Shown here piece after piece: positions 5,244 through 59,976 of a stretch of 60,481 bases of DNA. The stretch is from positions 1 to 60,481 of the IMG/VR virus record IMGVR_UViG_3300038462_000024. One strand, written 5' to 3'. Numbering within the stretch: the stretch's first letter is position 1; every line of letters begins with the position of its first letter. The DNA comes from a virus. Lineage: Duplodnaviria > Caudoviricetes. Position numbers and translations under genes: made by a program. The notes under the pieces are model-generated. The model was not told the origin of the DNA. It worked only from the letters and a program-made list of their open reading frames with translations, and did no database searches.

Positions 5244-5364
5244 GCGGCGGACTCCGTTGTGGGGCTTGTGCGGGAGCCAGAGACATGCTATAATCGCCTC
5301 TGGTAGCAATTAGGGCAAAAGAGTGCTCTGGTTGGGACTAGACACTAGAGCGCGGACACCCTCT

Positions 5365-7712: not shown

Positions 7713-7752
7713 GGGTTTTGGCCTGGGGCCAAGTGAAAGGGAGAATGGTTAA

Positions 7753-9351: not shown

Positions 9352-9366
9352 GGTTCCCGCAAGGGG

Positions 9367-9410
9367 CAGGCCGGGGGCTTAGTTTCCCTCACCTCCGGCC
9401 TGTTTTGTTT
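9367..9410 (+). terminator. Putative intrinsic terminator just upstream of terL
   Basis: CAGGCCGGGGG/CCTCCGGCCTG stem followed by TTTTGTTT. Confidence 0.5.
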
Positions 9411-9418
9411 GGGTTTGA

Positions 9419-24186: not shown

Positions 24187-25908
<1,722 letters not shown>

Positions 25909-25932
25909 TCCTGGGAGCGGCTGGAGAAAATA

Positions 25933-26580: not shown

Positions 26581-26599
26581 CAGAGGAAATTTGAAGCTA

Positions 26600-33888: not shown

Positions 33889-33924
33889 GGTTGACGTCCC
33901 CCCGCAACAGGTATTGGAGGCCAC

Positions 33925-34407: not shown

Positions 34408-34595
34408 ATTGGGCGTCGACCGAATACAGTTGGTTGTTAGTCCCCTGCACTGAGGGCGGCCTGTGCAATTACCTGTGGTTAAAAACGGGGGCGGTTGATC
34501 TGATTGATTTATGCCTCATGCATGACCACATCGCCGCGACTAGGGAAAATGAACGCCGTCAACAAAACTGGGTAAGCACTAAGGGCAATGTATAA
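34362..34595 (+). CDS. -1 frameshift extension of the tail chaperone (GT-like)
   Basis: Slippery T TTT TTC at 34362-34368; -1 frame encodes WLLVP...LKTG.VDL.DL..M.D...EN and abuts the tape measure start. Confidence 0.7.
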   Translation, partial: FFRWRPVRYGGASEVDWASTEYSWLLVPCTEGGLCNYLWLKTGAVDLIDLCLMHDHIAATRENERRQQNWVSTKGNV

Positions 34596-36557: not shown

Positions 36558-36865
36558 CCACGGCGTACGAAATACCCTTAAAAAATGAAGCGCAGCAGCT
36601 CAACATTACAATTGAGGGGGTAGTGTACAGCTTGGCTTTGGCGTGGAATACGTTTGCGGGGGCCTGGTACTTAGATGTTTCTGATCAAAACTTAACCCCT
36701 ATCCTGCAGGGGGTAAAACTGCTACCGGGAGGGGACCTATTAGCCCCTTACGCCTACCTGGGGTTCGGATTTGAATTGGTGGTTCAGACTGACCACGACA
36801 CGTTTGCCGCGCCGACTTACGCCAATTTGGGTGTCGATTCCCACCTATACGCCGTGTTTGCATGA
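36554..36865 (+). CDS. Baseplate plug-like protein
   Basis: EIPL...WN...WYLD...G.DLL.PY.YLG; context. Confidence 0.7.
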   Translation: MTTAYEIPLKNEAQQLNITIEGVVYSLALAWNTFAGAWYLDVSDQNLTPILQGVKLLPGGDLLAPYAYLGFGFELVVQTDHDTFAAPTYANLGVDSHLYAVFA

Positions 36866-37806
36866 GCAGCCAGTATCTACGAAAGGTCGGGCTGGTGGTG
36901 GCTACGGGCAGCCAGGGCCTGGACCTGTCTAATATGCAAATGCAGTTCGCCACCCAGCAGGCCGATCAAACCGCCCCCAACACCGCATATATCCGGGTGT
37001 TTAATCTGAAGGACTCTACCGCCAAAGCTATTCAAAACGAGTTCCAGACCGTATCGCTCCAGGCGGGATATGAAAACGGGAACTATGCCCAGATTTTCAA
37101 CGGGCAGATTATGCAAGTAAAGCGCGGCCGGATAGACGCGGTTACCAAATACCTGGACATCATGGCCTCAGATGGGGACTTATTTCACCATTTCGGGTTT
37201 ATCAATAACACGCTCGCGGCGGGCAACACCAGCGCGGCCAACCAATACGCGGCCATCCAGGGGGTGGCTACGGGCACCGGGGTGAATGAACACCCCAATA
37301 ATGCTAGTGCACTCGCCGCTACGGGCGGCGTGCTGCCCAGGGGCAAGGTACAGTTTGGGCTGGCGCGGTATCAACTCGATAAGCTCACCGCATCCAAAGC
37401 CATGTCGTGGTATATCAAGGATGGGCAATTAATCCTCAAGCCCCTAACGGGGTATTTGCCGGGTGAGGCGGTAGTGCTTACCTCCAAGACGGGCATGATT
37501 GGTATACCCGAAGCCACCAACCAAGGCATTGAATTGAGGTGCTTGCTCAACCCCCTTATTAGCGTTGGGACCCAAGTTAAACTGGACAACAAGTCCATTA
37601 ATCAGACGACGCAACGCCAGTTCGGCGGGCTGTACCCCGGCTGGACAGATATTAACTTCTTTGCCTCCACGGCGGACGATGGGGTTTACCAAACTATCGT
37701 GGTCGAGCACTTCGGCGATATTCGCGGCAACCAATGGGAATCCCACTTGACCTGTCTCGCCTTAGATAAGAGTTCAGGCGCGGGCAGCTCGATTAGGGCA
37801 TATTAA
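36862..37806 (+). CDS. Baseplate hub protein
   Basis: A.IRVFNL, LQAGY, IF.GQI, GMIGIPE, CLLNP. Confidence 0.8.
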   Translation: MSSQYLRKVGLVVATGSQGLDLSNMQMQFATQQADQTAPNTAYIRVFNLKDSTAKAIQNEFQTVSLQAGYENGNYAQIFNGQIMQVKRGRIDAVTKYLDIMASDGDLFHHFGFINNTLAAGNTSAANQYAAIQGVATGTGVNEHPNNASALAATGGVLPRGKVQFGLARYQLDKLTASKAMSWYIKDGQLILKPLTGYLPGEAVVLTSKTGMIGIPEATNQGIELRCLLNPLISVGTQVKLDNKSINQTTQRQFGGLYPGWTDINFFASTADDGVYQTIVVEHFGDIRGNQWESHLTCLALDKSSGAGSSIRAY

Positions 37807-38480
37807 TGGACCGGCGCGAACGGTATAACAACATGGTTGTCGCGGTCCGGGCGATGCTCCACCAGGAGCGGGCAGACATGTGGACGGCGCTCCCGGCCAT
37901 TGTTCAGAGCTATGACCCTACTAAGGTTTCCGTATCGGTTCAACCCTCAATCATGGGGCAATTCCGGCAACAAAACGGCCCCAATGCGGATGAGGCATGG
38001 GTAGACGTCAAGTTACCGGTATTGGTCGACTGCCCTGTGTTCTTCCCAGGGGGTGGGGGCTATCTCCTGTCGTTTCCGTTGGCCAAGGGGGATGAGGGCG
38101 GCGTGATTTTTTCGGCGCGTTGTATTGACGCCTGGTGGCAATCGGGGGGAGTTCAGCGCCAGGCCGAACTCCGGATGCACGACCTGTCGGACGGAATGTT
38201 TATTCCGGGGTTGTTTTCCCTGCCGCGTGTGCCCGTTAACCTTTCCAACACCGACGTGCAACTAAGGAATATGGCGGGGGATTGCTCGGTTAGTATTAAC
38301 CCAGCTAAACAAATAGTCATAGTCGCTCCGGGGGGCGTAGCAATTCAAGGGGCGTTGACTGTAACTGGGGACATTACCGGGGGGTTGGGTTCGGCGGACC
38401 AGGTTGGGTTGCGCACTCACACGCATTCGGGCGTATCAACGGGCGGGGCGCAAACCACCGCACCAGTGGCGGGAACATGA
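37806..38480 (+). CDS. Baseplate central spike (gp138-like)
   Basis: ALPAIVQSYDP, RMHDLSDG; C-terminal HTH(S) metal-binding tip. Confidence 0.85.
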   Translation: MDRRERYNNMVVAVRAMLHQERADMWTALPAIVQSYDPTKVSVSVQPSIMGQFRQQNGPNADEAWVDVKLPVLVDCPVFFPGGGGYLLSFPLAKGDEGGVIFSARCIDAWWQSGGVQRQAELRMHDLSDGMFIPGLFSLPRVPVNLSNTDVQLRNMAGDCSVSINPAKQIVIVAPGGVAIQGALTVTGDITGGLGSADQVGLRTHTHSGVSTGGAQTTAPVAGT

Positions 38481-38833
38481 GAGTCAGGGCGGAAGACAGC
38501 AACGGCGATTACACATTCGGGCGCGGCTCGGGAAACTTCCTGGTGGATACGCCCGCCGTGGTTGGTCAACTGGTTGCCAACGAGCTGGGGCTCATGGAGG
38601 GGGAATGGTTTCTAGACAAGACGGCGGGCACCCCCTGGTGGCAAAAAATAATCGGGTATGGCGGCAATTATGATACCGCGCTGCGCGGGGTGATCTTAGG
38701 AGTGAATGGGGTAACGGGGCTTACTAATTATTCAAGCACGTTGAGCCCGGACAGCCGCGCGTTGACCGTAGTTGGAAATCTCCAGACCGTGTTTGGCCCC
38801 TTTCCTTTAACCGCAACCTTGCCGGTGGTGTGA
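38477..38833 (+). CDS. Baseplate wedge subunit (gp25-like)
   Basis: D.NGDYTFG...GEWFLD..AGTPW. Confidence 0.75.
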   Translation: MRVRAEDSNGDYTFGRGSGNFLVDTPAVVGQLVANELGLMEGEWFLDKTAGTPWWQKIIGYGGNYDTALRGVILGVNGVTGLTNYSSTLSPDSRALTVVGNLQTVFGPFPLTATLPVV

Positions 38834-40048
38834 ATGACGCTAGCGCTTCAAATCGGCCCGGCGGGGGCAACGGCCCCTAGTTACGCAAACATCCTGACTT
38901 ATTATCAGGACTCGTATTCGGGCATTTACGGTTCGGACAGCGACCTGACTGAAAAAAGTCAGGACGGCCAGTTCCTAGTTGTATTCTCACAGGCGGTGTA
39001 CGACGCCAACCAGATGGGGTTGGCGGTGTACAGTTCGTTTTCTCCAAGCTCGGCACAAGGGGCGGCCTTATCCTCCCTGGTAAAAATTAACGGTCTGCGC
39101 CGCAAGGCCGCCAGCCAGAGCACGGCCACCGTAACGGTTACTGGGGTTGCTAACTCAGTGGTTGTCAACGGGTTGGTGGGGGATAATATCAACCAAAATA
39201 CGCAATGGGCACTTCCGCCCACTGTTACTATCCCCTCGGGGGGCTCGATCTCGGCGGTTGCTACTTGCACCCTGGCGGGGGCCACGGCGTCCGCCGCCCA
39301 TACCTTAACCGAAATTCTGAACCCCCAATTGGGATGGCAAACGGCGGACAACGCCGCTGCGGCCACGATTGGCGACCCGGTGGAAACAGACCCCCAATTG
39401 CTGGCCCGCCAACAGATTTCCGTGGCTGCCCCCTCGATTACCCCGGTAGGATCCCTTCGGGCCAATTTGGCCGCGTTGGCGGGAGTGGGGCATGTTCAAG
39501 TATATGAAAACGATACCGGTGTTACGGATTCGCTCGGACTTCCTCCGCATAGCGTGTCGGCGGTAGTTGAGGGGGGCACGGCCGCTAGTATTGCCCAGAC
39601 GATACAGAACATTAAGTCGATTGGATGCAGCACGTGCGGCACCTCGTCATTAACTGTACTTGACCAAAACGGAATGCCCAAGACGATTAAGTGGTATCCG
39701 TTAGCCACTATTCCGTTAACTATTGTTGTGCACCTAAATGCGCTCTCCGGGTATAATTCCACTACGGCTACCTATATCAAACAGGCTCTTTCACACTTCG
39801 TATCGGAGTTCGGGGTTGGGGAAAGTTCATACCTTAGCCGCCTGTACAGCCCGGCGCAGTTGAAGGGGGCGGAGGCCGTGGCCGGGACCGGTTTGACGCA
39901 GACTCAGTTAGACGCGCTGTCTAACACCTTTTCGATTAACTCAATCCTGCAGGCGCGCACCGGTTCGCCCTCGGCCGCCAACGCTGTTGCTTCATTTTAT
40001 GAGATATTCTCGGCGGCCGTCGCGGACATCTCGGTTGTCTTACCATGA
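38834..40048 (+). CDS. Baseplate J-like wedge protein
   Basis: IYG...DGQF, A.G..L...NGLRR, ETD..L, YEND. Confidence 0.88.
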   Translation: MTLALQIGPAGATAPSYANILTYYQDSYSGIYGSDSDLTEKSQDGQFLVVFSQAVYDANQMGLAVYSSFSPSSAQGAALSSLVKINGLRRKAASQSTATVTVTGVANSVVVNGLVGDNINQNTQWALPPTVTIPSGGSISAVATCTLAGATASAAHTLTEILNPQLGWQTADNAAAATIGDPVETDPQLLARQQISVAAPSITPVGSLRANLAALAGVGHVQVYENDTGVTDSLGLPPHSVSAVVEGGTAASIAQTIQNIKSIGCSTCGTSSLTVLDQNGMPKTIKWYPLATIPLTIVVHLNALSGYNSTTATYIKQALSHFVSEFGVGESSYLSRLYSPAQLKGAEAVAGTGLTQTQLDALSNTFSINSILQARTGSPSAANAVASFYEIFSAAVADISVVLP

Positions 40049-40803
40049 CTGATTTCGTCGGCTACTGGGAAGAGCCGGGGGTTATTGCTAACGACTTGTG
40101 GTCCATCCCAGTCAACTGGACAACGGGCGTTGGCCCCGCCGTGGGCACCGTGGCCGCGTGGTTGAGCCGGGTTACGTCCAAGTTTCAAAGCAAACCCAAT
40201 TTCATGAACACCGTGGCGGTAACGGTGCAACCCCTGGCCGATACGTTAACCCAGTTAAGCCTCATTCCCTCATTGTATGACTTGGATTCGGCGGTGGGTT
40301 CCCAATTGGATGTCGTGGGGGAATGGGTGGGCATCACCCGGTATGTGCAGACTCCCTTAACTGGGGTGTATTTTTCTTTCGATACGGTAGGCGTTGGGTT
40401 TGATCAGGGGACATGGTTTGGCCCCTATGATTCCACGACGGGCGCTACCCGGTTGGGGGACGACACCTATCGAACACTGCTCCGGGCCAAGATCGCGGCC
40501 AATCACTGGGACGGCACGAAGCCGGGAGCTTATGCCGCCTGGGCGGCCCTATTCCCCGCTACGTTCGATGTGCTAATACAAGATACGGGGGGTATGCATA
40601 TGGCGTATGCCTTGCTCGGCCCCACTCCAGACGCCGTTACCTTGGCTTTGTTTACTCAGGGGTACTTGTCGTTGAAACCGTCTGGTGTTCAAATCGATGC
40701 GTTTATGACGCCATCAGTGCCCTCTACCCCCTATTTTGGATTTGACGCTCAAAACAGCTCGGTGTCGGGATTTGATGTCGGAGCTTGGGGCAACCTGAAC
40801 TGA
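40045..40803 (+). CDS. Baseplate wedge protein (DUF2612-like)
   Basis: DLDSAVGSQLDVVGEWVG...DDTYRTLLRAKIAANHWDG. Confidence 0.85.
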   Translation: MTDFVGYWEEPGVIANDLWSIPVNWTTGVGPAVGTVAAWLSRVTSKFQSKPNFMNTVAVTVQPLADTLTQLSLIPSLYDLDSAVGSQLDVVGEWVGITRYVQTPLTGVYFSFDTVGVGFDQGTWFGPYDSTTGATRLGDDTYRTLLRAKIAANHWDGTKPGAYAAWAALFPATFDVLIQDTGGMHMAYALLGPTPDAVTLALFTQGYLSLKPSGVQIDAFMTPSVPSTPYFGFDAQNSSVSGFDVGAWGNLN

Positions 40804-46750: not shown

Positions 46751-48250
46751 CTACTCCGCTACGTCTACTAACACCAGTTCTGACTTAGCGCGCGTGTACG
46801 CCACGTAAATCAGGTTATTCTCCTGCTCCAGTTCCCATTCTTGCCGGGCGAAGATTGAGGGCATATAACGGTTTTGCCCCAGCAAGAATACCCGGTTCCA
46901 CTCGCGGCCCTTGGCCTTGTGGATGGTGGAAAGGGACAGGCGCGAGGCCCCAACTTCCTCACTGTCCTTAAAGATGTGTTCGATGCGGGCGCGTAACTGC
47001 TCCACCTCGTCCAGTCCCTCCGCCAGCACGGAAATCGTGCCTGCCCGGTCAACCAGCGCGGCGGCGGCCATGTCCTTCCCAACGCTCTTAAGTTTTTCCC
47101 TTTCCGTTTGAACAAAGTGCTCCATTCGAAGTAACAAATCCGAGCAAGCACTACACTTGAACCGGGAAATGAATTTGAGCAAGCCCTTGCCGATGTCGCG
47201 CCCCTCGACGTGGGCGGGCAGCCCCTTAGCAATCAGGATGTACGCGGCGGCCACCAGGGGGCGCGTATTCCGGCACAGGATAACATCCTCTCCAATTTTA
47301 AACTCGGTTTGATACAGTTGGGCCTCAGTTATGGTCGAAACGGAACCTTCGGGAGCCGACTCGTGGGCCTCGATGTGGGACACAACGGTTTGCGCCGCCT
47401 CCACCACGCGCTTAGGGCACCTATAGGTGACCGTAAGGGGCAGTTGGGTACACTTGAAGTCTTTTATTATCCGGTCGACTGCGGCGGCGTCAGCCCCATT
47501 GAAGCCGTAAATGGCCTGGTTACGATCCCCCACGAACATTGCCCGGCCGTCCCGCCTCAACATCTTGCGGGCCAAGATGCGCCGAATCGGGTTGGTGTCT
47601 TGGGCCTCGTCAGTCAACACCCAGTCGTGCTCAAACATGCGCAGGCCCGACACGGTGGGCATGTACAACATGTCGTTGAAATCGCAGTATTGGGGGGCCA
47701 GCTCAATATGCAAAAGCAGCGCGTCGGTCGAACGCTTGATTAGGTCCGCCACGGTCAGACTGGCAGGCAGGTCATACTCAATGCCGAAATGATCAATTAT
47801 GTCCAGCCAGTGTTGCCCAAACCCTGGAGACATGCCCGTCGTCCCGATTCCCCGCTGCTTGGCTTGGCCAACCAGGTTATCTACGATGGAAATGAGGTTG
47901 GCCGGGGTCCGCAACCGTTCAGCAACAATCCGAGATTTCTCCTTGGCTGCCTCAGGCCCGGCTTTGACTTGGGGGTACTGCCGCCGCCACGCGGCCAGCC
48001 CGAACTTGTGGAAAGTGCCCGTATACACTTTCTGGCTCAGGCCCGCCGCGTGAATCTTGGCCGTGATTTCGTCGGCGATTTTCTTGTTGAAGGCCACGAA
48101 CGCCACTTGGCCGGACATCCGGGAGCATGCTTCAATTAGTGTAGTAGTCTTACCCGCACCCGCTACGGCTTCAACAAAAGCGCTTCCGTGTCCGTTTTCC
48201 ACCCAGTTGAACACCGCGAGCTGCTGAGGGCTCCAAATCCGTTCTGACAT
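46751..48250 (-). CDS. UvrD/Rep-like SF1 helicase
   Basis: AVAGAGKTT, DEAQD, VGDRNQAIYGF, TYRCP, TIHKAKGREW, YVAYTRA. Confidence 0.93.
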   Translation of the reverse strand: MSERIWSPQQLAVFNWVENGHGSAFVEAVAGAGKTTTLIEACSRMSGQVAFVAFNKKIADEITAKIHAAGLSQKVYTGTFHKFGLAAWRRQYPQVKAGPEAAKEKSRIVAERLRTPANLISIVDNLVGQAKQRGIGTTGMSPGFGQHWLDIIDHFGIEYDLPASLTVADLIKRSTDALLLHIELAPQYCDFNDMLYMPTVSGLRMFEHDWVLTDEAQDTNPIRRILARKMLRRDGRAMFVGDRNQAIYGFNGADAAAVDRIIKDFKCTQLPLTVTYRCPKRVVEAAQTVVSHIEAHESAPEGSVSTITEAQLYQTEFKIGEDVILCRNTRPLVAAAYILIAKGLPAHVEGRDIGKGLLKFISRFKCSACSDLLLRMEHFVQTEREKLKSVGKDMAAAALVDRAGTISVLAEGLDEVEQLRARIEHIFKDSEEVGASRLSLSTIHKAKGREWNRVFLLGQNRYMPSIFARQEWELEQENNLIYVAYTRAKSELVLVDVAE

Positions 48251-48852: not shown

Positions 48853-50271
48853 TTACGGGTTTCGGTAGCTTTGCATTGCTAACATAAGGCGGTCAACGTA
48901 GTCCGCCACGTTTTTCTTATTTCGAAGGGCCTCGATTGGCACTAAGTCAACCGGCGAAGCACATAGATCGAAATAATCACACGGTTGGTCCTGTTCGCCC
49001 CGGTGAATTCGGTCATTCATTTGCAGCCGATCACGCAGCCAATATGAGTTCTCGTAATAAATCAGCCGGTTAGCCCGGTCTTCCCCCTCTCCCCCCAGAA
49101 ACGTGTGGCCCATACACGCGGCGGACTGTTGCGCCACTAATATCCGGCAACTCGGGTCTTCGTTAAACTTCCGCTTTTCCGCGTTCTGCTCTTCGGCTTT
49201 CATTCCTCCCTTGAAAAACGCCGGTCTAACTCCCCACTTAGTTAATGCGGCAAACAGTTGTACTCCAGATTCCCGGTACACATACGAAACAATGGTCTTG
49301 CCGGGGCCTGCGTCGTGGATGTCCTTAACCGCTTGGATTTTAGGGTTAGCCCCGGCCGAGACTAACACCTCAGCTACGTCGCCATCCATCAAAATTCCGG
49401 AGGAAATCTGTTGAAGCTTGGCCGTGCGGTTCAAGACTAAACTAACCGATATTTCCCGGCCGTTAACAACTGTGCCGAACTCCTCCAACATGGCTTTGTA
49501 GTGCCGGAATTGCGCGGGCACCATTTCGACCATCGTCGGTTCATGCCAAATTTGAGGGGGCAGGTCCTTGCGCCAGTCACACTTCAAAGCCCGAAAGGCG
49601 TGTTTATCCAGGATGGGCGTCAGCCGTTCCTCGTTTTGTATTCCGATGACCTGCCGCCCCTGAAACCCCCCCTTCTTAGCAAACCGCGTCTTGAACGCAT
49701 AAGGGTTTACCCCGTTTAGCCCTCCCAATATCCGAATTTGGGACCAATAGTTAGTAACGTCCTTAGTTAACGGCGTGCCGTTCAGCCCCCTCACCATTAC
49801 CGCTAGTTGGGCGATTTGGATACTCTTTTTAGTCACCTGAGATTCGAAGTTACTAATGCAACTAGTTTCATCAAAGGCCAGGAAGCTTGGCCGCGAGGTA
49901 AGCAGCTTTTCTAGGGCCTCAAATCCCCGGTCGGTGCGCACCATTTCGTAATTAACCGCATAAAGGCTGCGCTTTCCCTTATCCGGGGGTTTATGCTTAG
50001 GCCAATACCCGGTTTCAATCCCAGCCGCGCCCCATTCGCGAGGGGCTAAGGTCCAGTCAAGTTTGAACGATTGAGGGGCCACCACCACCATAGTTTCTAA
50101 CTCGGAATTCAACCACTCATTGAGGGTGAGGGGGGTTTTCCCCAGCCCCTGTTCTAGCCAAAACCCATATTTGGCCTGGCCGTTGGCGCGGCGCATGGCT
50201 TCCATTTGCACCGCCCAAGGTTTCCGCCCATACTTGCCGTGGTTCAAGTTCCACTTAAGCCAGTCGGCCAT
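48853..50271 (-). CDS. SNF2-like SF2 helicase
   Basis: EQGLGKT, NYE, DETS, LNGTP, Q..DRIHR. Confidence 0.88.
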   Translation of the reverse strand: MADWLKWNLNHGKYGRKPWAVQMEAMRRANGQAKYGFWLEQGLGKTPLTLNEWLNSELETMVVVAPQSFKLDWTLAPREWGAAGIETGYWPKHKPPDKGKRSLYAVNYEMVRTDRGFEALEKLLTSRPSFLAFDETSCISNFESQVTKKSIQIAQLAVMVRGLNGTPLTKDVTNYWSQIRILGGLNGVNPYAFKTRFAKKGGFQGRQVIGIQNEERLTPILDKHAFRALKCDWRKDLPPQIWHEPTMVEMVPAQFRHYKAMLEEFGTVVNGREISVSLVLNRTAKLQQISSGILMDGDVAEVLVSAGANPKIQAVKDIHDAGPGKTIVSYVYRESGVQLFAALTKWGVRPAFFKGGMKAEEQNAEKRKFNEDPSCRILVAQQSAACMGHTFLGGEGEDRANRLIYYENSYWLRDRLQMNDRIHRGEQDQPCDYFDLCASPVDLVPIEALRNKKNVADYVDRLMLAMQSYRNP

Positions 50272-50601: not shown

Positions 50602-52266
50602 TTAATCCGAACAGCTTCCGTCAATAAAGCAAAGCTTAGGGGCGGTCGCATCGGTAAGTACGCCTTGACGCTTGCCTGCGCCCCGGTATGTGGTACACCC
50701 TTTGGCCCCTCCTTTCCACGCCCGAACGTAGACCTGGTTGAACTCCTCCCAGGTGACTTCAGACCCTACGTTACATGTCTTAGATACGGCGCTGTCAACG
50801 TGTTGCTGGGCCATCAACAGGACGTTTAGGTGGTCATCGACGCTGCATTGTTCAGCAGTTCTTCCCTTAACTCCGAAGCGGGCCACCCCGTAGTCAGCAA
50901 TTTCTACCAGCTCGGGGCCGTCCGCCATTTTAACCATACGCAATGTTGAGTGTGCAAACACGGGCTCAATCCCTCCGGACACGTTGTCCGCTGTCAAGCT
51001 TATCGTACCAGTCGGCGCGATCGATGTCAAGTGTGAATTGCGTATTCCGTGGGTCTTAATATCCGCCTGAAGACCAATAGGAAGCGTGTTGATAAACCGG
51101 CCCGCCGCATATTTTTCTTTATCCCAAAGGGGAAAGGCCCCCTTTTCTTCCGCCAGGGCCACACTGGCCCGGTAACAACCATCGCGGAGTACTGTCAATA
51201 TTCGGGCAGACCAATCCAGGAACGCCTCGCAACCATAAGGGGCACCCAGTGCCTCAACTGCGTTAGCCAACCCCATGACGCCCAACCCCATACGGCGTTT
51301 ACTTTTAGCCTCAAGCTCTTGAGGGGGTAGAGGGTATCGGGCTCTATCCACCACATTGTCCATGGCCCGTACCACGGGGGGGATATCAACCGCAAACTGG
51401 GCAAAATCAAATTCCCAGGCCCCCTCGGACCAGTTCATATAGGCGGGTAAGTTGAAGCTGCCCAGCAGGCACGCGCCGTTCGGCGGTAAGGGTTGTTCCC
51501 CACATGGGTTAGTTGCGGCAATTTTCTCACAATACCACAGGTTGTTCCACTTGTTGATGGTATCAATGAACAACACGCCGGGCTCCGCAAAGTCCCAAGT
51601 GGAACGCATCAGTTCCGCCCACAGGTCGCGGGCGTTAACGGTGCTAAAATGCCTGTCTCCCCAACGCAGGTCAAACGTGGTATCGGCTTCGAGCGTGGCC
51701 ATGAATTCGTCAGTAATCCCTACGGACAGGTTCATAGTTGTTAACGAGTGCTCGTCCTGTTTGGCCCGGATAAAATCCAGGATGTCCGGATGGTCAACCC
51801 TGAGCACACCCATCTGAGCAGCAGCCCGGTTTCCCGCCCCGTTAATGGTGGAGTTGATCACATGAAACACGTTCATGAAAGAAACTGGGCCGCTGGCTTT
51901 GGTGTCCAAGCTGGCGATGCGCTCCCCCCTCGGGCGCAGGGGAGAAAAATCATACCCAATGCCGCCGCCCAGCCTCAATGTTTCGGCGGCTTCCGTAGCT
52001 ACACCCATAATTCCCTGGATGCTGTCCGGGATTTCCCGAGACACAAAGCAGTTGTATGGGGTAGCGGTTCTAGTGGCCCCAATGGCAGACCAAACCCGGC
52101 CAGGGGGTGAAAACCGCCCCCCTAGCAGACAATCCCGGAACGCGTGGTAATGCGCCTCGTTGTCTTTGAGGGCATCGGCCACTCGGTTGCATGCCCCTCT
52201 AAACGATTCCCCCGCCGCCCGATATTTTTCTGCGTGTATCTGTTCAGAAATGCTTAATGTTGGCAT
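50602..52266 (-). CDS. nrdJ: Class II (adenosylcobalamin-dependent) ribonucleotide reductase
   Basis: NCFV, GGGIG, TNPCGEQPL, ACLLGS, IAPTGTIS, SKTCN; no NrdB beta subunit seen. Confidence 0.9.
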   Translation of the reverse strand: MPTLSISEQIHAEKYRAAGESFRGACNRVADALKDNEAHYHAFRDCLLGGRFSPPGRVWSAIGATRTATPYNCFVSREIPDSIQGIMGVATEAAETLRLGGGIGYDFSPLRPRGERIASLDTKASGPVSFMNVFHVINSTINGAGNRAAAQMGVLRVDHPDILDFIRAKQDEHSLTTMNLSVGITDEFMATLEADTTFDLRWGDRHFSTVNARDLWAELMRSTWDFAEPGVLFIDTINKWNNLWYCEKIAATNPCGEQPLPPNGACLLGSFNLPAYMNWSEGAWEFDFAQFAVDIPPVVRAMDNVVDRARYPLPPQELEAKSKRRMGLGVMGLANAVEALGAPYGCEAFLDWSARILTVLRDGCYRASVALAEEKGAFPLWDKEKYAAGRFINTLPIGLQADIKTHGIRNSHLTSIAPTGTISLTADNVSGGIEPVFAHSTLRMVKMADGPELVEIADYGVARFGVKGRTAEQCSVDDHLNVLLMAQQHVDSAVSKTCNVGSEVTWEEFNQVYVRAWKGGAKGCTTYRGAGKRQGVLTDATAPKLCFIDGSCSD

Positions 52267-52268
52267 GG

Positions 52269-52592
52269 TTAGACCCTCCTCGGGTCTTTAGTCCCATCGC
52301 GAAGCAACGCGAGATAAATCAGAAACGCAAAATTCGCGGTGTCGAACGCCTCCTGCAGCGAGTTGGGGTCAAACTTGTCCTTGAGGATTTGTTCGGTTAG
52401 CTCCCCAACCTCCCCCATGAGTTTCAACATTAACTCAGGTATTTGCGGCTTGTTGGGGGCGTCTTTGTGGGCGTTTAAATTAAGCTTGTAAATCATACCG
52501 GCAAAGAACAGGAGCAACTCGGTCCGGTAGTGGTTGAGGGCGGCGGGCAGCGGTATGCGCAGGTCCTGCGCGACGAGAGTTCCGTCAAGCAT
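52269..52592 (-). CDS. mazZ: MazG-like all-alpha dNTP pyrophosphohydrolase (MazZ/DUF550-like)
   Basis: EVGEL...EAFDTANF (ExxE...ExxD); directly downstream of purZ. Confidence 0.7.
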   Translation of the reverse strand: MLDGTLVAQDLRIPLPAALNHYRTELLLFFAGMIYKLNLNAHKDAPNKPQIPELMLKLMGEVGELTEQILKDKFDPNSLQEAFDTANFAFLIYLALLRDGTKDPRRV

Positions 52593-52616
52593 TATTAGTC
52601 ACCCCATTTGAGGAGA

Positions 52617-53687
52617 TTACAGGGACATATTCTCAATATCGGTTGTGGCGGGGCCAAACGCGGCTAGAAAATGCGGGGGGGCCACGCCTACCAGCTTGGC
52701 CTCTTCTTTTAATTTAGAAATAAGCTGGTACACGGCGGCTCGATCAGGCAGATAATCACAGAAAGTTAACAAGAAGATTTCTGGCCGGACTTTAACCAAC
52801 GCGTGCTCCGCCTGCTCAAAGGAGAATGTGAACACCCGCCGGGGGCGCTTGGTGACCGTGGTTAATTCAACCGGAACTCCCAGCCGCTCCCAGGAGGTTT
52901 CGTCCTGATCGGGGTAGCAGCCACCGGAAGAGTGCTCTCCCAGGTTTCCCACCCGAATAGGGAAAGTGCGCATAACCAGCAGGGACCCCCCGCAAAATAC
53001 TGGGTGAACTCCCGCGTCGTTCATGGCCCCCTCAATTGTGCTGTTCCGGCTGGTGCAATAAGGGTAGAACTGCCCGTCTAAACTGAGGTCTAATCCTTGA
53101 GGGACTTCGGCTAACACGGACTCCCCCGCCCATAGTGCTTGGTTTAAATCGAGGGGGCGGCAATAGGGGGTTAAAGACCGCACGTCTCTAGCGATTGGTC
53201 CTCCCCTCAACACTTTTCGAGCTAGGGCTTGTCCCACTCCTTTACACGTGGATGAGATGCGGGTTTGGGGGGACCCTTCATATCGTTCAAACTCAACGCA
53301 ATCCTTAGTGATAATGGCGGCGTTGGGGTGGATCTGAACGAGATGCCGGTGTTTCTCTGGAATGAAAGTAGAAATTTCATCCATAAGCATCTTCGGGTTA
53401 AAAACCGCCCCGGCGTTGAGGTAAATTCGGGGGTATAAGTCATTGTCCAGTGCGATGAGAGCGGCCGTGGGCAACAAGTTAGTAACGCGGGTGTTGCCCC
53501 GGTAGACACTGGTATGCCCTGCCTGCGCCCCCGCGTTGGTGGTGATAATGTCGAAGGTGCGGCCCCGCTTTTCCGCCAGCTCCGCCGCCAAATACGCGGC
53601 GGCGGCCCCCTTGCCCTCACTGCCGTATTGGCCGCCGATAACGAAAGACATCCGGCCAGCGGCCAGTAGGTTGAGCAGTCTCGACAT
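52617..53687 (-). CDS. purZ: PurZ-family aminodeoxyadenylosuccinate synthetase (2-aminoadenine pathway)
   Basis: GGQYGSEGKG (Ser where PurA has the catalytic Asp), AGHT, QG..LS...YPYCTSR, RTFPIRV, ELTTVTKRPRR, TFCDY; short 356-aa form. Confidence 0.88.
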   Translation of the reverse strand: MSRLLNLLAAGRMSFVIGGQYGSEGKGAAAAYLAAELAEKRGRTFDIITTNAGAQAGHTSVYRGNTRVTNLLPTAALIALDNDLYPRIYLNAGAVFNPKMLMDEISTFIPEKHRHLVQIHPNAAIITKDCVEFERYEGSPQTRISSTCKGVGQALARKVLRGGPIARDVRSLTPYCRPLDLNQALWAGESVLAEVPQGLDLSLDGQFYPYCTSRNSTIEGAMNDAGVHPVFCGGSLLVMRTFPIRVGNLGEHSSGGCYPDQDETSWERLGVPVELTTVTKRPRRVFTFSFEQAEHALVKVRPEIFLLTFCDYLPDRAAVYQLISKLKEEAKLVGVAPPHFLAAFGPATTDIENMSL

Positions 53688-53714: not shown

Positions 53715-53912
53715 TTAATACTTGCGGGTTAAAACAACGTTGATGGGCTCAAAGTGCCCTTTTGGACCTCGTTGCACCTCAAAGCTGATGCTAACGTCCA
53801 ATTCCGTTGCCTTGTTCATGACGCCAGCCACCTCGTTAAGGAGGGGAAGCAAGTGGGACTTAAGCTCAAGTATCTGCTCATCAATACTTGGCAGTTCTAG
53901 TTTGTTCGGCAT
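53715..53912 (-). CDS. Hypothetical protein
   Basis: 65 aa; GAGGAG RBS. Confidence 0.65.
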   Translation of the reverse strand: MPNKLELPSIDEQILELKSHLLPLLNEVAGVMNKATELDVSISFEVQRGPKGHFEPINVVLTRKY

Positions 53913-53915
53913 TGG

Positions 53916-54506
53916 TTACTTCTCCTCGGGGGTTGGGTCAATAAGGTAGACGCGTAAACTACCCCGCCAGGTTTTTCGAAGGTGAAAGACGCCGCAACCC
54001 AGATCTACCTCAACATACCCGCTCCCGGCGTCGGGGTCCCCGCTCCCGGAGGGCATCGTGCCGCCGGTACGCCCGCCCGGTACGCCCGCCTCCCCCTGGT
54101 CGAGCCGGGGACCCCGACACGCCTCGCGGCCCGCTCGCGTTCGGCTATACCCCCCAGGGGAGGGAGTCTTTTCGGCGTCTAAGTCGTACCCCGCGCTCTG
54201 GGGTTGGACAACTCGGGGGTCGGGCTTGGCCTCGGGGTCCCCGGCGGGCGCAACTGGAATCCGGTCGAGTGCCATTTGGGCGTACCCGATGATATCCTGC
54301 CAGTGGTCATGGGCATTGGGGTTTCCAGCCGTAAGCCGCGCGAGCTTGTGGACAATCATCTCCACGGCTTCCCGCTGGGCGTACGTCAGCTTCCGCCAGC
54401 TCGGCGTTTTGTGCAGAATGTTCTTTATTTCCTGCGCCGTGTTGGCCATGTCAGTAAAATCCCCATGGGTCTTAGCCCGGTTGTTAATCATATCATGTAT
54501 GGTCAT
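53916..54506 (-). CDS. DUF6378-like alpha-helical protein with low-complexity tail
   Basis: R..THGDF...MIVHKLAR...G.....DHWQDIIGYA. Confidence 0.7.
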   Translation of the reverse strand: MTIHDMINNRAKTHGDFTDMANTAQEIKNILHKTPSWRKLTYAQREAVEMIVHKLARLTAGNPNAHDHWQDIIGYAQMALDRIPVAPAGDPEAKPDPRVVQPQSAGYDLDAEKTPSPGGYSRTRAGREACRGPRLDQGEAGVPGGRTGGTMPSGSGDPDAGSGYVEVDLGCGVFHLRKTWRGSLRVYLIDPTPEEK

Positions 54507-54985
54507 CGATACTCCTGGGGGGCAGACCCCTGTATGGCTCTAGTAATGTACTCAACCAGCGCGGGGGTGCGGGGGTCAAGTTTGACGTATTCACCTATGG
54601 GCAGGGCAAACTTGGTGTGAATAGGGGGTACCTGGTGCTCACCAATAGGGGCAACAAGTCTGAACTGCTCGAACCACAGGACAGTCACCCAGATATCCCG
54701 GCAGTTTTTGCCCGCAAAGCTTAGCACACCCGTGGGCATGCCCGCAAGATGAAAGTCCCTCAGAAACCGAAATTGGGGGACAGTGATTTCGACTGCGGTA
54801 TGGACAATGCGCAGGGGCACCGCGTACCGGTTAAACTTCACCTCCAACAGCGCGGTGGGCATCTCGGGAAGCTTAACCAGCAAGTCCGCCACACCGGTTA
54901 GGAAGCGGTTGCTCAGCTTGTGGGCACAACCCCCTGCCGCCTTGATTGATTTAACTGTGATTGACTGCAACTCGGTTTCAAGCAC
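54503..54985 (-). CDS. VRR-NUC/PD-(D/E)XK nuclease (resolvase-like)
   Basis: E..LQ...GVADL...LEVK...Q..F; GTG start after AAGGAG. Confidence 0.75.
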   Translation of the reverse strand: MLETELQSITVKSIKAAGGCAHKLSNRFLTGVADLLVKLPEMPTALLEVKFNRYAVPLRIVHTAVEITVPQFRFLRDFHLAGMPTGVLSFAGKNCRDIWVTVLWFEQFRLVAPIGEHQVPPIHTKFALPIGEYVKLDPRTPALVEYITRAIQGSAPQEYR

Positions 54986-54992
54986 TGAGCGG

Positions 54993-56849
54993 CTACTCCT
55001 TAAGTTCTCCGTAAGTGGCAACCCCCCAATCCGGCCCCTCACCCGAATCCACCCGCATGGGGACATCAAGCGTAATCGGCTGACCGGGGGAAAAATCTAC
55101 CATTATCCGGCCGCACTCCTCGTAAACCGGCCGGTGCTCCTCGGAGAACTGATAGTCGAGGGAATCGTGGATGCTCAGCATCACCTGAATTGGCCGCCCA
55201 ATGCTGGCTAGGTATTCATCAATCTGAACCATCTTCAATTTGATGATATCCGCGTTGCCCCCCTGCAGCAGCCGGTTGACGGCCACGTAGGATTTTTGCG
55301 GGTCATTCAACCGGGCCTTGCGGCCAAGCAAGGATCGCACATATCCGCGCCGTTTTAGAATGCTGGATGCCTCATATTGCAGCCGCTTGATTTCCGGCAG
55401 CCGCTTGAAATACTCCTCCCATACCCGCTCGGCCTCATCTTCTGTAATCTTATACTTTTTGACAAGCACGCCCTTGCCGCCGCCTGTAAGCAAGGTCTGG
55501 TTGACGCGCTTTCCGGTTTGCCGGTCGAGCCCGGTAGCGTCGGCCACGGCTTGGTGCGCGTCAGCACTGGGGTTGTTGCAATAATCATCCATTAAGACCT
55601 TACAGCGGGAATAGTAAGCCAAAAGTCTGGGCTCCGCCTGGCTAAAGTCCCGGCTCCCCCAGATCTTACCCTCATCGGGGACAAATATTGACCGGAATGC
55701 GCGCCCCAAGGTGTAATCCGAATGGTGAGGGATTTGCATTAGGTTGGGATTGCTAGATGATAGCCGCCCGGTAATTGTGCCGAAATCGTCGTTGCGTAAC
55801 TGATTGTAATCAGCATGCACCCGACCATTGAACAGATGCGTGTCGAGCATCGGCTGGATAAATGAGCTAAGTAGCGTCTTGAGTTTTCGGATCTTGACCA
55901 CGGCCAGCCCCGCCGGATGCGTTTCCAGCCAAGACTCGGGGAATGAAGGTCGCCGCAGTTTTTCAGTTAGCGGCCAGTCCGTGGCCTTGTTGGCCTCGCA
56001 CCATTTCTGCACGTCGGAGGGGGACTTGGGGTTGAAGCCTTCGGGAAACCCCCGCAATAACTGCTCAACCTGGGTGCGGATGTTCGAATGGAGCAGGTGG
56101 AGCCGCTCCTCGTCGATCCGAATTCCCAACATGGTCTGGCGAACCAAAATCGGAATTAACCGGCACTCAATGTCATGAACTCGAAGCAACTCTTCCTTAG
56201 CCAGCCGTTCGCGCTGCCATGCTATTAACTGCCAAGTAGTCGTGCCGTCTCCTTGGGCGTATTCGGCTGCCACTGCATCATTGCCGGGCAACCGCCAATA
56301 ATGTCCCATGACTTCCCGATCAGACAATTCTTCGTTGGGGAACTGAGCTTGGATATGGGCTTTAAGGCCGCCGCCTTTTTTCTCTTGTACCCCGGCTACT
56401 TTAGCGCAGTGGTCCAGGGAAAACTTGCCTTGCCACTCATTGAGCAAGGCGGCGTTAATCATTGAATCTTCGTACTGCGCGCATTGCCGGGTGTACCCCA
56501 CGCGCCACAGCATCTTCAGGTCGTAAGAAAGGTTGTGGCCAAGAACCTTTAAACTTGGCCGCTCTAATCGGGCAACTAGCTCGTCCTCCCACGCCTCAGT
56601 GTGGCCGTCCCAGTTCGTGGGGGTTTGAGGGGGCAGAGCGCTACTTAAGTTTCCGCCCGCCACATGCCGCACGGGCAGATAATAGGAATCCTGGGGGGCG
56701 GGTCCAAAGGCCAGGGCATAACCCACAATGTGGTTTCGCTTGGTGTCCAAACCAGACGTTTCCACATCCACTACGGCCTCATCGGCCCGCGCCAGCCGGT
56801 TTAAAACTTCGCTTAGGGCATCGGGGGAAACGTCGGACTTGGAGGCCAT
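54993..56849 (-). CDS. Family A DNA polymerase with 3'-5' exonuclease
   Basis: DVETSGL, HNLSYD, YAQGD; TGRLSSSNPNL; motif A DFSQAEPR; motif B RQTGKRVNQTLLTG; motif C IHDS. Confidence 0.95.
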   Translation of the reverse strand: MASKSDVSPDALSEVLNRLARADEAVVDVETSGLDTKRNHIVGYALAFGPAPQDSYYLPVRHVAGGNLSSALPPQTPTNWDGHTEAWEDELVARLERPSLKVLGHNLSYDLKMLWRVGYTRQCAQYEDSMINAALLNEWQGKFSLDHCAKVAGVQEKKGGGLKAHIQAQFPNEELSDREVMGHYWRLPGNDAVAAEYAQGDGTTTWQLIAWQRERLAKEELLRVHDIECRLIPILVRQTMLGIRIDEERLHLLHSNIRTQVEQLLRGFPEGFNPKSPSDVQKWCEANKATDWPLTEKLRRPSFPESWLETHPAGLAVVKIRKLKTLLSSFIQPMLDTHLFNGRVHADYNQLRNDDFGTITGRLSSSNPNLMQIPHHSDYTLGRAFRSIFVPDEGKIWGSRDFSQAEPRLLAYYSRCKVLMDDYCNNPSADAHQAVADATGLDRQTGKRVNQTLLTGGGKGVLVKKYKITEDEAERVWEEYFKRLPEIKRLQYEASSILKRRGYVRSLLGRKARLNDPQKSYVAVNRLLQGGNADIIKLKMVQIDEYLASIGRPIQVMLSIHDSLDYQFSEEHRPVYEECGRIMVDFSPGQPITLDVPMRVDSGEGPDWGVATYGELKE

Positions 56850-57690: not shown

Positions 57691-58093
57691 CGGTTTCCTC
57701 CGGGGGGTTAGGGTTGGCCAACGCAGCAGTGCGCAACAGCGCGGTGCCTAGAGCTTCCGCGTCGGCTAAGGGAATAACCAGGAACGTGTGGATAGGGGAG
57801 GGGGGCAACCCCTCCACCTGTTCGCAGGCCATCACCCGGATGTGGGAGCCATCACCCCAAAGGGAGAACGCGTTGGCGAAGAGGGGTTGCACCCCGTTGC
57901 CAACGCGCACCTTCTGTGGGGGGGCCGGAGGCTGAGGCATCGGAGCGTTAACATGTGTGCCCGGCAGTACTTCGCCGGGCATATCTACGCCCCTCACAGC
58001 TTCAACGGTTTGCTTTAGCCGGTTTAGGGCTTCAGTTGCGGCATCGAGGGAAATACCACCGGGGGCCTCAGTATGCGGGCCGTTTTCCTGCAT
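57665..58093 (-). CDS. Hypothetical protein
   Basis: GGAGG RBS before ATG 58093. Confidence 0.6.
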   Translation of the reverse strand: MQENGPHTEAPGGISLDAATEALNRLKQTVEAVRGVDMPGEVLPGTHVNAPMPQPPAPPQKVRVGNGVQPLFANAFSLWGDGSHIRVMACEQVEGLPPSPIHTFLVIPLADAEALGTALLRTAALANPNPPEETDAPQPRRD

Positions 58094-58958
58094 CTTCCCC
58101 TCCCACATCCTCATCAGATTCTTCCTGCTGCAGCCCCTCAAGATCGCGGATTTGCGGTGCCGCCTTCAAGAACTGGTCATACATCTCCTTGTATTGGTTG
58201 TAAAGGGACTGGTCCGCCAGTAGCCCATTCGCGCGGGGGATTAGGGTCTTAAATGACTTGCCCTCCCGGTTGGTGGTGTTGACGGAGGAAAACTCGTAGA
58301 CCTGCCCAAAAATCGGCCGGTTGCGGGTTTTCAACGTGCTTTGGAATTTTCGCGCTACGCCGATGGTGGAGCGCTGGAAGGTAAGCACGGCCGGAAGTAA
58401 TTCGGGGTGTTGGGGGAAGATCAACACGAAGTTATACATGAGGGTTGCGGCGGGCGGCGATGAGGCGTTGTCCGGGTCGAGCGTACCCCATTGGGCGAGG
58501 CCAGAATCCTCCACCGTAGGGGCGGTGTCCCAGGTGACTTTCTTGCCCCCGTCTATCTTGTTTAAAGTAACCTCGAACGAGGCGTGCGGCGGGACCCAGT
58601 GGCGGCCGTCATCGGCGCGGGCCAGGATGCCGCCCCCCGAATCCTGAGGCCGCCATAGGATATAGCGCTTGTCGCGGTACACCGGAACGGCCAGAAACTT
58701 AGGCCCCAAGTTAAACTCGGCAGCGGTGTGCCAGAAATCGCCAGTCTTGAGCCCATCGAAGGTTTCTAATTCCGGCGATGTCCCTTGCATCAACTTGATG
58801 CGCGGAACGGAGATGTCGTCGGAACCAATGCTTTCAGTCCCCATGCCCGCGTCGGCGCGCATGAAGTCAGGCAGGTCATCGGTAAGGGCTAAGGAAAGTT
58901 GGGGTTCCGCTGTTTTGGCGGGCAGAGTCGTTTTCGCGGCTGCGGGGGGTCTGGCCAT
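58068..58958 (-). CDS. Putative ssDNA-binding/annealing protein
   Basis: D...PRIKLMQ.TSPE N-terminus, acidic C-terminal tail ending in an aromatic residue; replication-operon context. Confidence 0.6.
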   Translation of the reverse strand: MARPPAAAKTTLPAKTAEPQLSLALTDDLPDFMRADAGMGTESIGSDDISVPRIKLMQGTSPELETFDGLKTGDFWHTAAEFNLGPKFLAVPVYRDKRYILWRPQDSGGGILARADDGRHWVPPHASFEVTLNKIDGGKKVTWDTAPTVEDSGLAQWGTLDPDNASSPPAATLMYNFVLIFPQHPELLPAVLTFQRSTIGVARKFQSTLKTRNRPIFGQVYEFSSVNTTNREGKSFKTLIPRANGLLADQSLYNQYKEMYDQFLKAAPQIRDLEGLQQEESDEDVGGEDAGKRPAY

Positions 58959-58968
58959 GGGTTTACTC

Positions 58969-59529
58969 CTATTTTTTGGTTGAAGTGACGGAAGTGGTTT
59001 GAGTGAGGGTGACGTTGAAAAGGTCCGGGGGCGGCTCTACATTAGTTTCCTCTAGTTGTTCCTTGACTGCGGCGGAGAGCGTCTGGGTATTAACAGCGGG
59101 CTGAATTAGGTCCCCAAGCCCGTTCTCCTTTAACCAAGCAAACGCAGGTTCCTTAGCTCCTGGCTTTACCGCCACCCACAGCCGGGAGGAAGTTCCCACC
59201 CGGAACCCCTCAGCCAGGGGGACGTTGGTGACCCCCGATATTTCCATGCTTGTAGGCACTGCGTTAGTCTTGTAGTATTCAAACAGCGCGCTGAACTGTT
59301 TTTCCAACAGCTCCATGTCATTTTTAAGAAAATGGAGGGCCACAAAATTCCGGGCCAAACTCACAACCCCCAACCGGGAGGCGTTAAACATAGCCCGCCT
59401 TAACTCGCGGAGGCTTTGGCTAAGCCCCGCGAGCGCGGCGCTGATTTCAGGCAAGGGGGATTGAGGCCCGATCAAGGAGGGGGGCAAGAGGGTAAAGTCG
59501 GTAAACTCGGAGGGCTTTTTGGTCACCAC
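58969..59529 (-). CDS. Conserved phage replication-region protein
   Basis: AFAWLKENGLGDLIQPAVNTQTLSA motif; coiled-coil N-terminus. Confidence 0.7.
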   Translation of the reverse strand: MVTKKPSEFTDFTLLPPSLIGPQSPLPEISAALAGLSQSLRELRRAMFNASRLGVVSLARNFVALHFLKNDMELLEKQFSALFEYYKTNAVPTSMEISGVTNVPLAEGFRVGTSSRLWVAVKPGAKEPAFAWLKENGLGDLIQPAVNTQTLSAAVKEQLEETNVEPPPDLFNVTLTQTTSVTSTKK

Positions 59530-59549
59530 TAGACTCCTATATCAAAGCT

Positions 59550-59579
59550 ACCGTAGCACGGGGGAGAGAGATGCACAAG
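59550..59579 (-). promoter_or_regulatory. Putative promoter for the replication operon
   Basis: CTTGTGC-N17-TACGGT with GTGC before the -10 element; same style as 446-475. Confidence 0.45.
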
Positions 59580-59622
59580 TACCAAATCAGGATTAAACCA
59601 ATCCCTAAGTTCAATCTGGTGG

Positions 59623-59976
59623 TTACACGCCCCCTGAGGGGCCAGGGTCGCGTGGGCCAATTCCAGTTAAGTGCACTGGCATGTACCCAGTGGCGGCTTT
59701 AACATAGCGTAGAACTTTAAACCGGGGCAACGCCCGGCCGAGCAAGGCACTGAGGTACACGAGTTGTAGATGGTCCCCGACAATCAGCAGGTAGTCTTCG
59801 GGGTTGAACTCCGACACTGCGGCCAACATGCGGGAATAAAAAAGTGTGGGGATTTGGCCGGTGTCGTCCACCTCGTCGGGGTATATATACCGGTCGTTAA
59901 TAAATTTGAGGCGGCCCCACTGTTCGGCAGAACCGATGTCGTCAAGAACGGGGTGCGGGACGTAGACTAGGGGCAT
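59623..59976 (-). CDS. Hypothetical protein
   Basis: 117 aa; A...G...FNPEDYLLIVGD pattern. Confidence 0.7.
   Translation of the reverse strand: MPLVYVPHPVLDDIGSAEQWGRLKFINDRYIYPDEVDDTGQIPTLFYSRMLAAVSEFNPEDYLLIVGDHLQLVYLSALLGRALPRFKVLRYVKAATGYMPVHLTGIGPRDPGPSGGV

Follow-up and report, generated by a model that had tools for sequence, protein, structure and literature searches.

A reduced PurZ cassette that lacks DatZ in a probable Z-DNA myovirus

The DNA considered here, referred to below as the window, is a stretch of 60,481 bases that makes up one whole IMG/VR virus record (IMGVR_UViG_3300038462_000024), and at positions 52,269 to 53,687 it encodes a protein homologous to adenylosuccinate synthetase (PurA) together with a small MazG-like protein. 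We propose that the window probably represents a Z-DNA myovirus, i.e., an uncultured phage of peat or soil whose replication module holds a reduced cassette for the use of 2-aminoadenine (Z) in its DNA. The identities of the genes, their clades, key residues, and order, and the lack of DatZ and of the other known enzymes that clear deoxyadenosine triphosphate (dATP), were computed. This lineage stands out not by its tail but by having lost DatZ and all other known dATP-clearing genes, with NrdJ where DatZ would lie, along with an Asp form of the synthetase PurZ.

The PurZ-clade synthetase

The P-loop of the PurZ open reading frame (ORF), VIGGQYGSEGKGAAA, reads GGQYGSEGKG and contains Ser23, and the protein further displays the motifs MRTFPIRVGN and LLTFCDYLP, the latter of which carries Asp311. 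It is recovered by the Pfam family PF00709 (E 1.9e-25) and by phrog_1211, “2-aminooxy adenylosuccinate synthetase” (E 5.3e-57). Among solved structures, its two best matches are the PurZ enzymes of phiVC8 (6FM1, E 2.1e-44) and S-2L (7ODX, 2.3e-34), followed by weaker matches to PurA of P. horikoshii (5K7X, 2.1e-30) and to PurZ0 (7VF6, 1.6e-17), the last being the enzyme of Gordonia phage Archimedes (PMC12884076). It matches 204 phage records in GenBank, the best of which is Ochrobactrum phage OH (36.5% identity). The original prediction, made from the sequence of the window, had recognized a PurA homolog with GSEGKG, RTFPIRV, and TFCD motifs, in which a Ser replaces the catalytic Asp of PurA, next to a MazG-like gene and a ribonucleotide reductase. 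On these points it is borne out: the motifs are all present in this ORF, Ser23 aligns with S14 of phiVC8 and with the E. coli Asp, and a MazZ-type ORF of 107 amino acids (aa) and an NrdJ gene were found adjoining PurZ. A PADLOC search with the PurZ, MazZ-2, and DUF6378 proteins of the window returned nothing.

We collected 81 loci from IMG/VR (80 from an alignment scan plus L010) and 80 from prokaryote genomes, with PurZ of phiVC8, S-2L, SH-Ab 15497, PMBT28, and OH, four PurZ0 phages, and E. coli PurA as references. In an IQ-TREE phylogeny of 84 rows (LG+C20+F+G4, with support from the Shimodaira-Hasegawa-like approximate likelihood ratio test [SH-aLRT]), the window enzyme pairs with L078 (SH-aLRT 99), its counterpart in a sister genome (record G042), and is then nested in a 12-row clade (100) and a 16-row clade (97), every member of the latter having GSE in its P-loop. 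These in turn lie within a 59-row PurZ clade (99) that holds every characterized PurZ, its members including phiVC8, S-2L, SH-Ab 15497, and PMBT28. Two further PurZ trees, for the set used in the topology test described below and for a set with the Burkholderia phages Bm1 and BCSR129, agree on placement in the PurZ clade.

Besides Ser23, several other key residues can be traced from phiVC8 PurZ to the window. F12 and T262 correspond to Tyr21 and Thr276, positions of the pocket for the 2-amino group of deoxyguanosine monophosphate (dGMP) (bioRxiv 10.1101/2025.10.22.683976), with Tyr21 being the state found in S-2L. F295 and Y298, which in phiVC8 PurZ stack on the adenine of ATP (bioRxiv 10.1101/2025.10.22.683976), correspond to Phe309 and Tyr312, the residues of PurZ0 at these places being Met and Gln. 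At two positions the residue is changed: N297 of phiVC8 is replaced by Asp311, with Asp likewise present in PurZ0 and E. coli PurA, and T15 is replaced by Glu24.

MazZ-2, the polymerase, and DUF6378

The 107-aa ORF starts 24 nucleotides downstream of PurZ. Only 4 homologs of its product were found in a collection of 5.8 billion proteins, it has no match in Pfam, PHROG, or NCBIfam, and its best profile match in the Protein Data Bank (PDB) is weak (2p06, E 0.075). A tblastn search recovered gp33 of OH (E 2.4e-7; 32% identity) and p26 of phiVC8 (E 0.01), both of which represent the MazZ-2 variant (PMC8342488). A hidden Markov model (HMM) built from the window protein and its 4 homologs only recovered OH gp33 with a score of 48.9 bits and phiVC8 p26 with one of 21.2 bits; the same model did not match S-2L MazZ, DUF5664 of Arthrobacter phage Wayne, or the MazG genes of cyanophage Pam3. 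The acidic residues E61, E64, E81, and D84 are invariant, four conserved acidic residues being the published criterion for MazZ-2 (PMC8342488). Judged by these matches and residues, the ORF is a member of the MazZ-2 family. The earlier description of it as MazZ/DUF550 thus stands for the MazZ type, in the form of MazZ-2, and falls for DUF550: neither DUF550 (PF04447) nor DUF5664 matches the 107-aa protein. With the OH and phiVC8 sequences added, the model matches 61 of 82 viral PurZ sources, and in 15 of the 16 sources displayed, the window included, the match lies directly after PurZ (L019 being the one without a match). The sister genome (L078/G042) has two tandem MazZ-2 copies (11137-11891), which are 62% and 66% identical to the single copy of the window.

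The family A polymerase (PolA) of the window finds its best PDB match in DpoZ of phiVC8 (7PBK, 6.4e-40, versus 2.2e-35 for Klenow). In a tree of 58 PolA proteins, it falls in a 46-row clade (SH-aLRT 96) comprising only PurZ-linked genes and that of OH, the tree giving no firm link between this clade and the DpoZ clade of phiVC8, SH-Ab, and PMBT28. Six polymerases from phages lacking PurZ form a separate clade; five of these six phages were checked, and PF00709 was found in none of the five. The branching order of the PolA tree resembles that of the PurZ tree.

The DUF6378 protein encoded near PurZ has relatives in many of the same loci. In 55 of the 82 sources, a DUF6378-type ORF lies no more than 10 kb from PurZ, often directly upstream, and one is also present in OH and Bm1, in the latter of which it is annotated as “phosphofructokinase.” An Atlas search with the window protein returned DUF6378 clusters only, no similarity to DUF5664 of Wayne was seen, and no mention of DUF6378 was found in the Z-DNA literature that was searched for the word.

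Loss of DatZ and the proposed pathway

NrdJ, which is 58% identical in the window to its counterpart in Pam3, sits where DatZ lies in most PurZ loci. The nearest relatives of the window PurZ (L011, L012, L014, L015, L018 to L021, and L023) carry PurZ, MazZ, and DatZ in a row, which indicates that the window lineage lost DatZ. Taking these genes together, we postulate that NrdJ raises the supply of deoxynucleotides, that the MazZ-2 enzyme cuts dGTP to dGMP, and that PurZ joins aspartate to dGMP to yield succino-2-amino-deoxyadenylate. Host PurB and kinases would then complete the triphosphate of Z (dZTP), and the DpoZ-like PolA of the phage would place Z opposite T. Each of these activities, as well as Z in the virion DNA itself, is a prediction from sequence. 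With DatZ missing, A may be replaced either wholly or in part.

Several observations weigh against this proposal. A DatZ HMM matched 70 of the 82 PurZ sources, with the window and L078 not among them. PF12917, PF01966, and PF13023 detected nothing in the window, and PF12917 and PF01966 detected nothing in the whole sister record, the positive controls for PF12917 having been recovered in 4 of 4 cases (phiVC8, OH, S-2L, and G002). The window likewise has no match at an E of ≤1 to dUTPase (PF00692) or NDT (PF05014), and a search of it for DUF550 and DUF5664 found none. Both synthetase and polymerase score below the curated cutoffs of their best NCBIfam models, PurZ reaching 195.5 bits against 300 for the PurZ model NF038379, which is still its best model, and PolA 287.2 bits against 500 for the DpoZ model NF038380. 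Asp311 and Glu24 are the states of PurA and PurZ0. Further, Ser-type PurA-like genes of unknown role are frequent in bacterial chromosomes, so that the Ser alone proves little. Finally, E. coli strains with incomplete Z-clusters showed lower substitution (PMC8342488).

One alternative, which we regard as possible and on balance unlikely, is a working cassette that replaces A in part only, so that the DNA would contain both A and Z for want of any enzyme to remove dATP. It is favored by the absence of DatZ, DUF550, DUF5664, dUTPase, and NDT from the window and by the lowered substitution in E. coli upon omission of datZ (PMC8342488); moreover, if Asp311 makes this PurZ use GTP, the enzyme would not consume dATP. 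However, the cassette includes a PurZ-linked polymerase and has been kept in two diverged genomes of the lineage. DpoZ reportedly rejects dATP (Pezo et al., 2021). In addition, MazZ-2 could act on dATP too, as does the enzyme of SH-Ab 15497 (PMC8342488). It appears very unlikely to us that the PurA-like gene alters nucleotide pools, e.g., as a sink for dGMP or in the synthesis of AMP, with no Z in the DNA. The missing DatZ, the score below the curated PurZ cutoff, and the commonness of Ser-type PurA-like genes of unknown role in bacterial chromosomes would be compatible with such a role, but the PurZ-specific pocket residues are kept, and MazZ-2 and the PurZ-linked PolA have been inherited together with PurZ.

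Returning to the proposal of a Z-DNA phage that does without DatZ, MazZ-2, the gene for which is duplicated in the sister genome, might keep A out by acting on both dATP and dGTP, or the polymerase or the DUF6378 protein might do so. To our knowledge, current accounts make dATP removal, whether by DatZ, DUF550, or DutZ, a part of every Z-genome system. Two diverged and near-complete genomes that have PurZ, MazZ-2, and a PurZ-linked PolA and that lack DatZ raise the question of whether this removal is dispensable or has been replaced.

PurZ, PurZ0, and the phosphate donor

The Asp of the TFCD motif had been equated with the Asp of TKLD in PurA, and the enzyme had been tentatively assigned on this basis to the GTP-using PurZ0 type. 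The residue observation is right, with the Asp aligning with that of E. coli PurA and that of PurZ0; the family assignment, as judged from alignment and tree, is wrong. The phylogeny with PurA, PurZ, and PurZ0 that had been suggested as a check puts the enzyme in the PurZ clade (SH-aLRT 99) and not with PurZ0. That it is nonetheless of the PurZ0 type, as Asp311 and Glu24, shared with PurZ0 and PurA, could be taken to mean, is in our view extremely improbable. The four PurZ0 rows form a clade of their own (100), next to bacterial and archaeal genes of the Ser type, whereas the window is nested in the PurZ clade; constraining the window and L078 to group with PurZ0 worsens the log likelihood by 90.95 units and is rejected by the approximately unbiased (AU) test (p-AU 0.000108; 40 of the 84 rows, LG+G4). 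Phe309 and Tyr312 stand in place of the Met and Gln of PurZ0, and the structure match to PurZ0 is 1.6e-17 versus 2.1e-44 for phiVC8 PurZ. Neither dUTPase nor NDT, and no homolog of dutZ or dmtZ, was found in the window, whereas all 98 PurZ0 genomes carry dutZ (PMC12884076).

At the donor-base position, which Asp311 occupies, the 82 viral PurZ sources have Asn in 49 cases, Asp in 30, and Gln in 2, with one sequence cut; all four characterized PurZ enzymes have Asn or Gln. PurZ uses ATP (PMC12884076, introduction), and the use of ATP or dATP arose in PurZ after PurZ0 (bioRxiv 10.1101/2025.10.22.683976, introduction). Section 24 of PMC12884076 gives the preferences of PurZ0 and PurZ as “ATP and GTP, respectively,” contrary to its own introduction. 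The split between Asp and Asn (30 versus 49 of the 82) bears on the reading of the phosphate donor from sequence. It is conceivable, and we offer this tentatively as a rather doubtful combination, that the lineage makes Z-DNA without a known dATP-clearing enzyme and that its Asp-form PurZ uses GTP; if such GTP use were true, members of the PurZ clade would not be uniformly ATP users.

Many PurA-like genes with GSEGKG and an Asp at the TKLD place were encountered in bacterial and archaeal chromosomes. Of the 80 prokaryote loci, 40 are fusions of at least 480 aa with an N-terminal P-loop kinase-like domain (e.g., L124:2488-4095 and L168:2446-4044). The N-terminal parts of L124 and L168, both of the fusions tested, gave weak PADLOC matches to VakA and to a “dCTPase” model, and the seven fusions included in the tree group by themselves, apart from both PurZ and PurZ0.

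Genome organization, sister genome, and habitat

By its gene content, the window is a tailed phage with a contractile-tail gene set (Table 1), in agreement with the contractile-tailed virion originally proposed: genes for the sheath, the baseplate hub, and two wedge subunits were found (phrog_205, 196, 120, and 6). The plus-strand arm holds the virion genes, and the minus-strand arm holds the replication genes. Completeness is 100% by CheckV, the G+C content is 57.2%, and no tRNA genes were found in the window. Bases 1-350 recur at 60027-60481, with the exception of five units of a 21-bp repeat, a pattern like that of a genome that is closed or terminally redundant. The overlap (1-422 and 60007-60481) falls within a gene of 21-bp (7-aa) tandem repeats; five units plus a few bases separate its two copies, and the repeat number is thus uncertain or variable. 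Two long ORFs have no PHROG match, namely, the 532-aa ORF at 7753-9351, which is flanked by the genes for the small and the large terminase and has a signal-peptide-like start, and a 933-aa ORF at 20588-23389. A megablast search of 40000-60481 against phages gave no match.

Table 1. Features of the window, ordered by position
Feature	Position	Strand	Evidence or remark
Primase-polymerase/DUF5906 replicative protein	2973..5309	-	
Small terminase, 532-aa ORF without family, large terminase, portal	6877..13158	+	
Head maturation protease, structural protein, major head protein	24187..27763	+	
Tail sheath	31921..33420	+	phrog_205, E 3.9e-102
Tube-position structural protein (phrog_280), tail assembly chaperone, tape measure	33433..35979	+	
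Baseplate hub, wedge subunits (phrog_196, 120, 6), structural protein (phrog_587)	36862..40803	+	
UvrD-type helicase	46751..48250	-	Pfam, PHROG
SNF2-type helicase	48853..50271	-	36% identity to helicase of Z-phage OH
Class II (adenosylcobalamin) ribonucleotide reductase NrdJ	50602..52266	-	TIGR02504 NrdJ_Z, 496.8 bits vs cutoff 399.95
MazZ-2-type MazG-like NTP pyrophosphohydrolase, 107 aa	52269..52592	-	E61, E64, E81, D84
PurZ-clade succino-amino-deoxyadenylate synthetase (predicted), 356 aa	52617..53687	-	Ser23, Tyr21, Thr276, Phe309, Asp311, Tyr312
65-aa ORF between DUF6378 gene and PurZ	53715..53912	-	Homologs: none found
DUF6378 protein, 196 aa	53916..54506	-	Conserved only over first ~90 aa; frequent PurZ neighbor
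188-aa ORF, no known family	54503..55069	-	Kept in sister genome G042, 53% identity
Family A DNA polymerase with 3'-5' exonuclease, DpoZ-like	54993..56849	-	Clade of PurZ-linked polymerases
Pam3 gp34-, gp33-, and gp32-like genes	58068..59976	-	

The sister genome G042 measures 58,252 bp, is 98% complete, and shows the same gene order on one contig, with identities to the window of 70% for the sheath, 70% for NrdJ, 68% for PolA, and 57% for PurZ. Five runs from four studies, with labels of peat or soil, each contain at least half of the words of the stretch 50000-57000, the runs with small word shares (X6 to X15) having been set aside, and the record may derive from one of these five runs. All 30 bins of 38000-57900 are covered in each of 4 runs. 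One run contains a variant strain of 95 to 99% identity, a contig of which (52489-54506) spans PurZ and its two neighbors. A variant strain in run X3 departs from the window at 43997-46244, in accessory genes, through a deletion of 18 bases, a skip of 272 bases, and a replacement of 334 bases. That a myovirus and a Z-phage were fused in assembly is the least credible of the alternatives, for although the contigs of the other runs (0.5 to 3 kb) do not reach from the structural module to the replication module, the independent genome G042 has sheath and PurZ module on a single 58-kb contig, all 30 of the above bins are covered in 4 runs, and the ends of the window overlap as in a closed genome.

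PurZ in other contractile-tailed phages

A sheath-bearing PurZ phage had been flagged as a novelty in the original prediction, which turned out to be overstated, as PurZ also occurs alongside a phrog_205 sheath in Bm1 and BCSR129. We screened 50 IMG/VR PurZ records, each of at least 25 kb and drawn from 80 loci found (315 PurZ hits overall), calling sheaths with phrog_205, PF04984, PF17482, and PF04865 combined. G042 alone has phrog_205, a 142-kb contig (G029) alone has PF04984 and PF17482, and both have PF04865. The GenBank screen covered 14 PurZ or PurZ0 phage records out of the 204 matching, two of which, Bm1 and BCSR129, have phrog_205. When used as a query, the sheath protein of the window failed to recover that of BCSR129, which phrog_205 found, so that blanks from sheath-protein queries are weak.

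BCSR129 has hub, wedge, and major-head PHROGs like those of the window. The record of Bm1 is annotated with PolA, PurZ, a small ORF, DatZ, a helicase, and the DUF6378-kind “phosphofructokinase.” Its published description reports Bm1 as a myovirus with a contractile tail in electron microscopy and does not discuss a Z genome, the words adenylosuccinate, aminoadenine, and diaminopurine being absent from the main text (PMC12003559). The PurZ of Bm1 and BCSR129 has the classical GSTGKG and LNFANY motifs and is sister to phiVC8 PurZ (SH-aLRT 97). In the five phages with the closest sheaths (Burkholderia phages vB_E192a, PL1, Magia, and BgManors32 and Edwardsiella phage ZHS), a search run without a positive control found PurZ in none. 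No sheath-bearing PurZ phage was found described in the literature searched; some may be among the viruses that PMC12884076 and the 2021 Science papers list in their supplements.

G029 (loci L060, L091, and L092) is a large uncultured phage with a classical PurZ, a sheath of the Phage_sheath_1 type, and Baseplate_J; no MazZ-2 or DatZ was seen within 10 kb of its PurZ, and the same holds for sister contigs of 111 to 161 kb.

Going by these genomes, PurZ has joined contractile-tail genomes at least three separate times, in the window lineage, in Bm1/BCSR129, and in the 142-kb contig. Its occurrence in at least three unrelated contractile-tail settings shows that the cassette moves between virion types. 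Bm1 and BCSR129, which are cultured and whose pairing of PurZ with this tail type has gone unremarked in GenBank, provide material for the question of Z in a myovirus.

Comparison with known systems

The Z-clusters of phiVC8 and S-2L (purZ, mazZ, and datZ; PMC8342488) share with the window a PurZ-clade enzyme with a Ser at the position of PurA Asp13, and phiVC8 additionally shares a MazZ-2-type gene directly downstream of PurZ and a family A polymerase nearby. In contrast to both, the window is without datZ and has NrdJ at that place, its P-loop reads GSEGKG instead of GSTGKG, and its donor-base residue is Asp instead of Asn or Gln. Further, phiVC8 and S-2L are a podovirus and a siphovirus, whereas the window is, by its genes, contractile-tailed. 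The best GenBank match is OH (Ochrobactrum phage vB_OspP_OH, NC_070933.1), with identities of 36.5% for PurZ, 32% for PolA, 36% for the helicase, and 32% for MazZ-2, and with a shared order of PolA, one other gene, the DUF6378-type gene, PurZ, and MazZ-2, followed at some remove by the helicase. Unlike the window, OH has DatZ and is by name a podovirus, of 41 kb, in which none of four sheath or baseplate searches found a match. Bm1 (PP183292.1) and BCSR129 (MW460247.1), both cultured, resemble the window in having a phrog_205 sheath and PurZ and differ from it in their classical PurZ of another sublineage and in their structural proteins, which are 21 to 31% identical to those of the window; in Bm1, DatZ is present as well.

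The PurZ0 phages (Arthrobacter phage Wayne and Gordonia phages; PMC12884076) have in common with the window the Ser at the catalytic position, the Glu in the P-loop, and the Asp at the donor-base position. They differ in forming a separate clade, in having Met and Gln where the window has Phe and Tyr, and in possessing DutZ, DmtZ, and DUF5664, none of which was found in the window. Finally, the distantly related Pseudanabaena myophage Pam3 (ON014755.1) matches 17 of 75 window proteins, including NrdJ (58%), the large terminase, PolA, and the gp32- to gp34-like proteins. In its replication arm, at the place of the PurZ set of the window, aGPT-Pplase, Nmad5, and thymidylate synthase (a thymidine-hypermodification set) are annotated, and the annotation of its record names no PurZ gene. 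Comparison of Pam3 with the window shows how related phage backbones appear to carry different DNA-modification cassettes.

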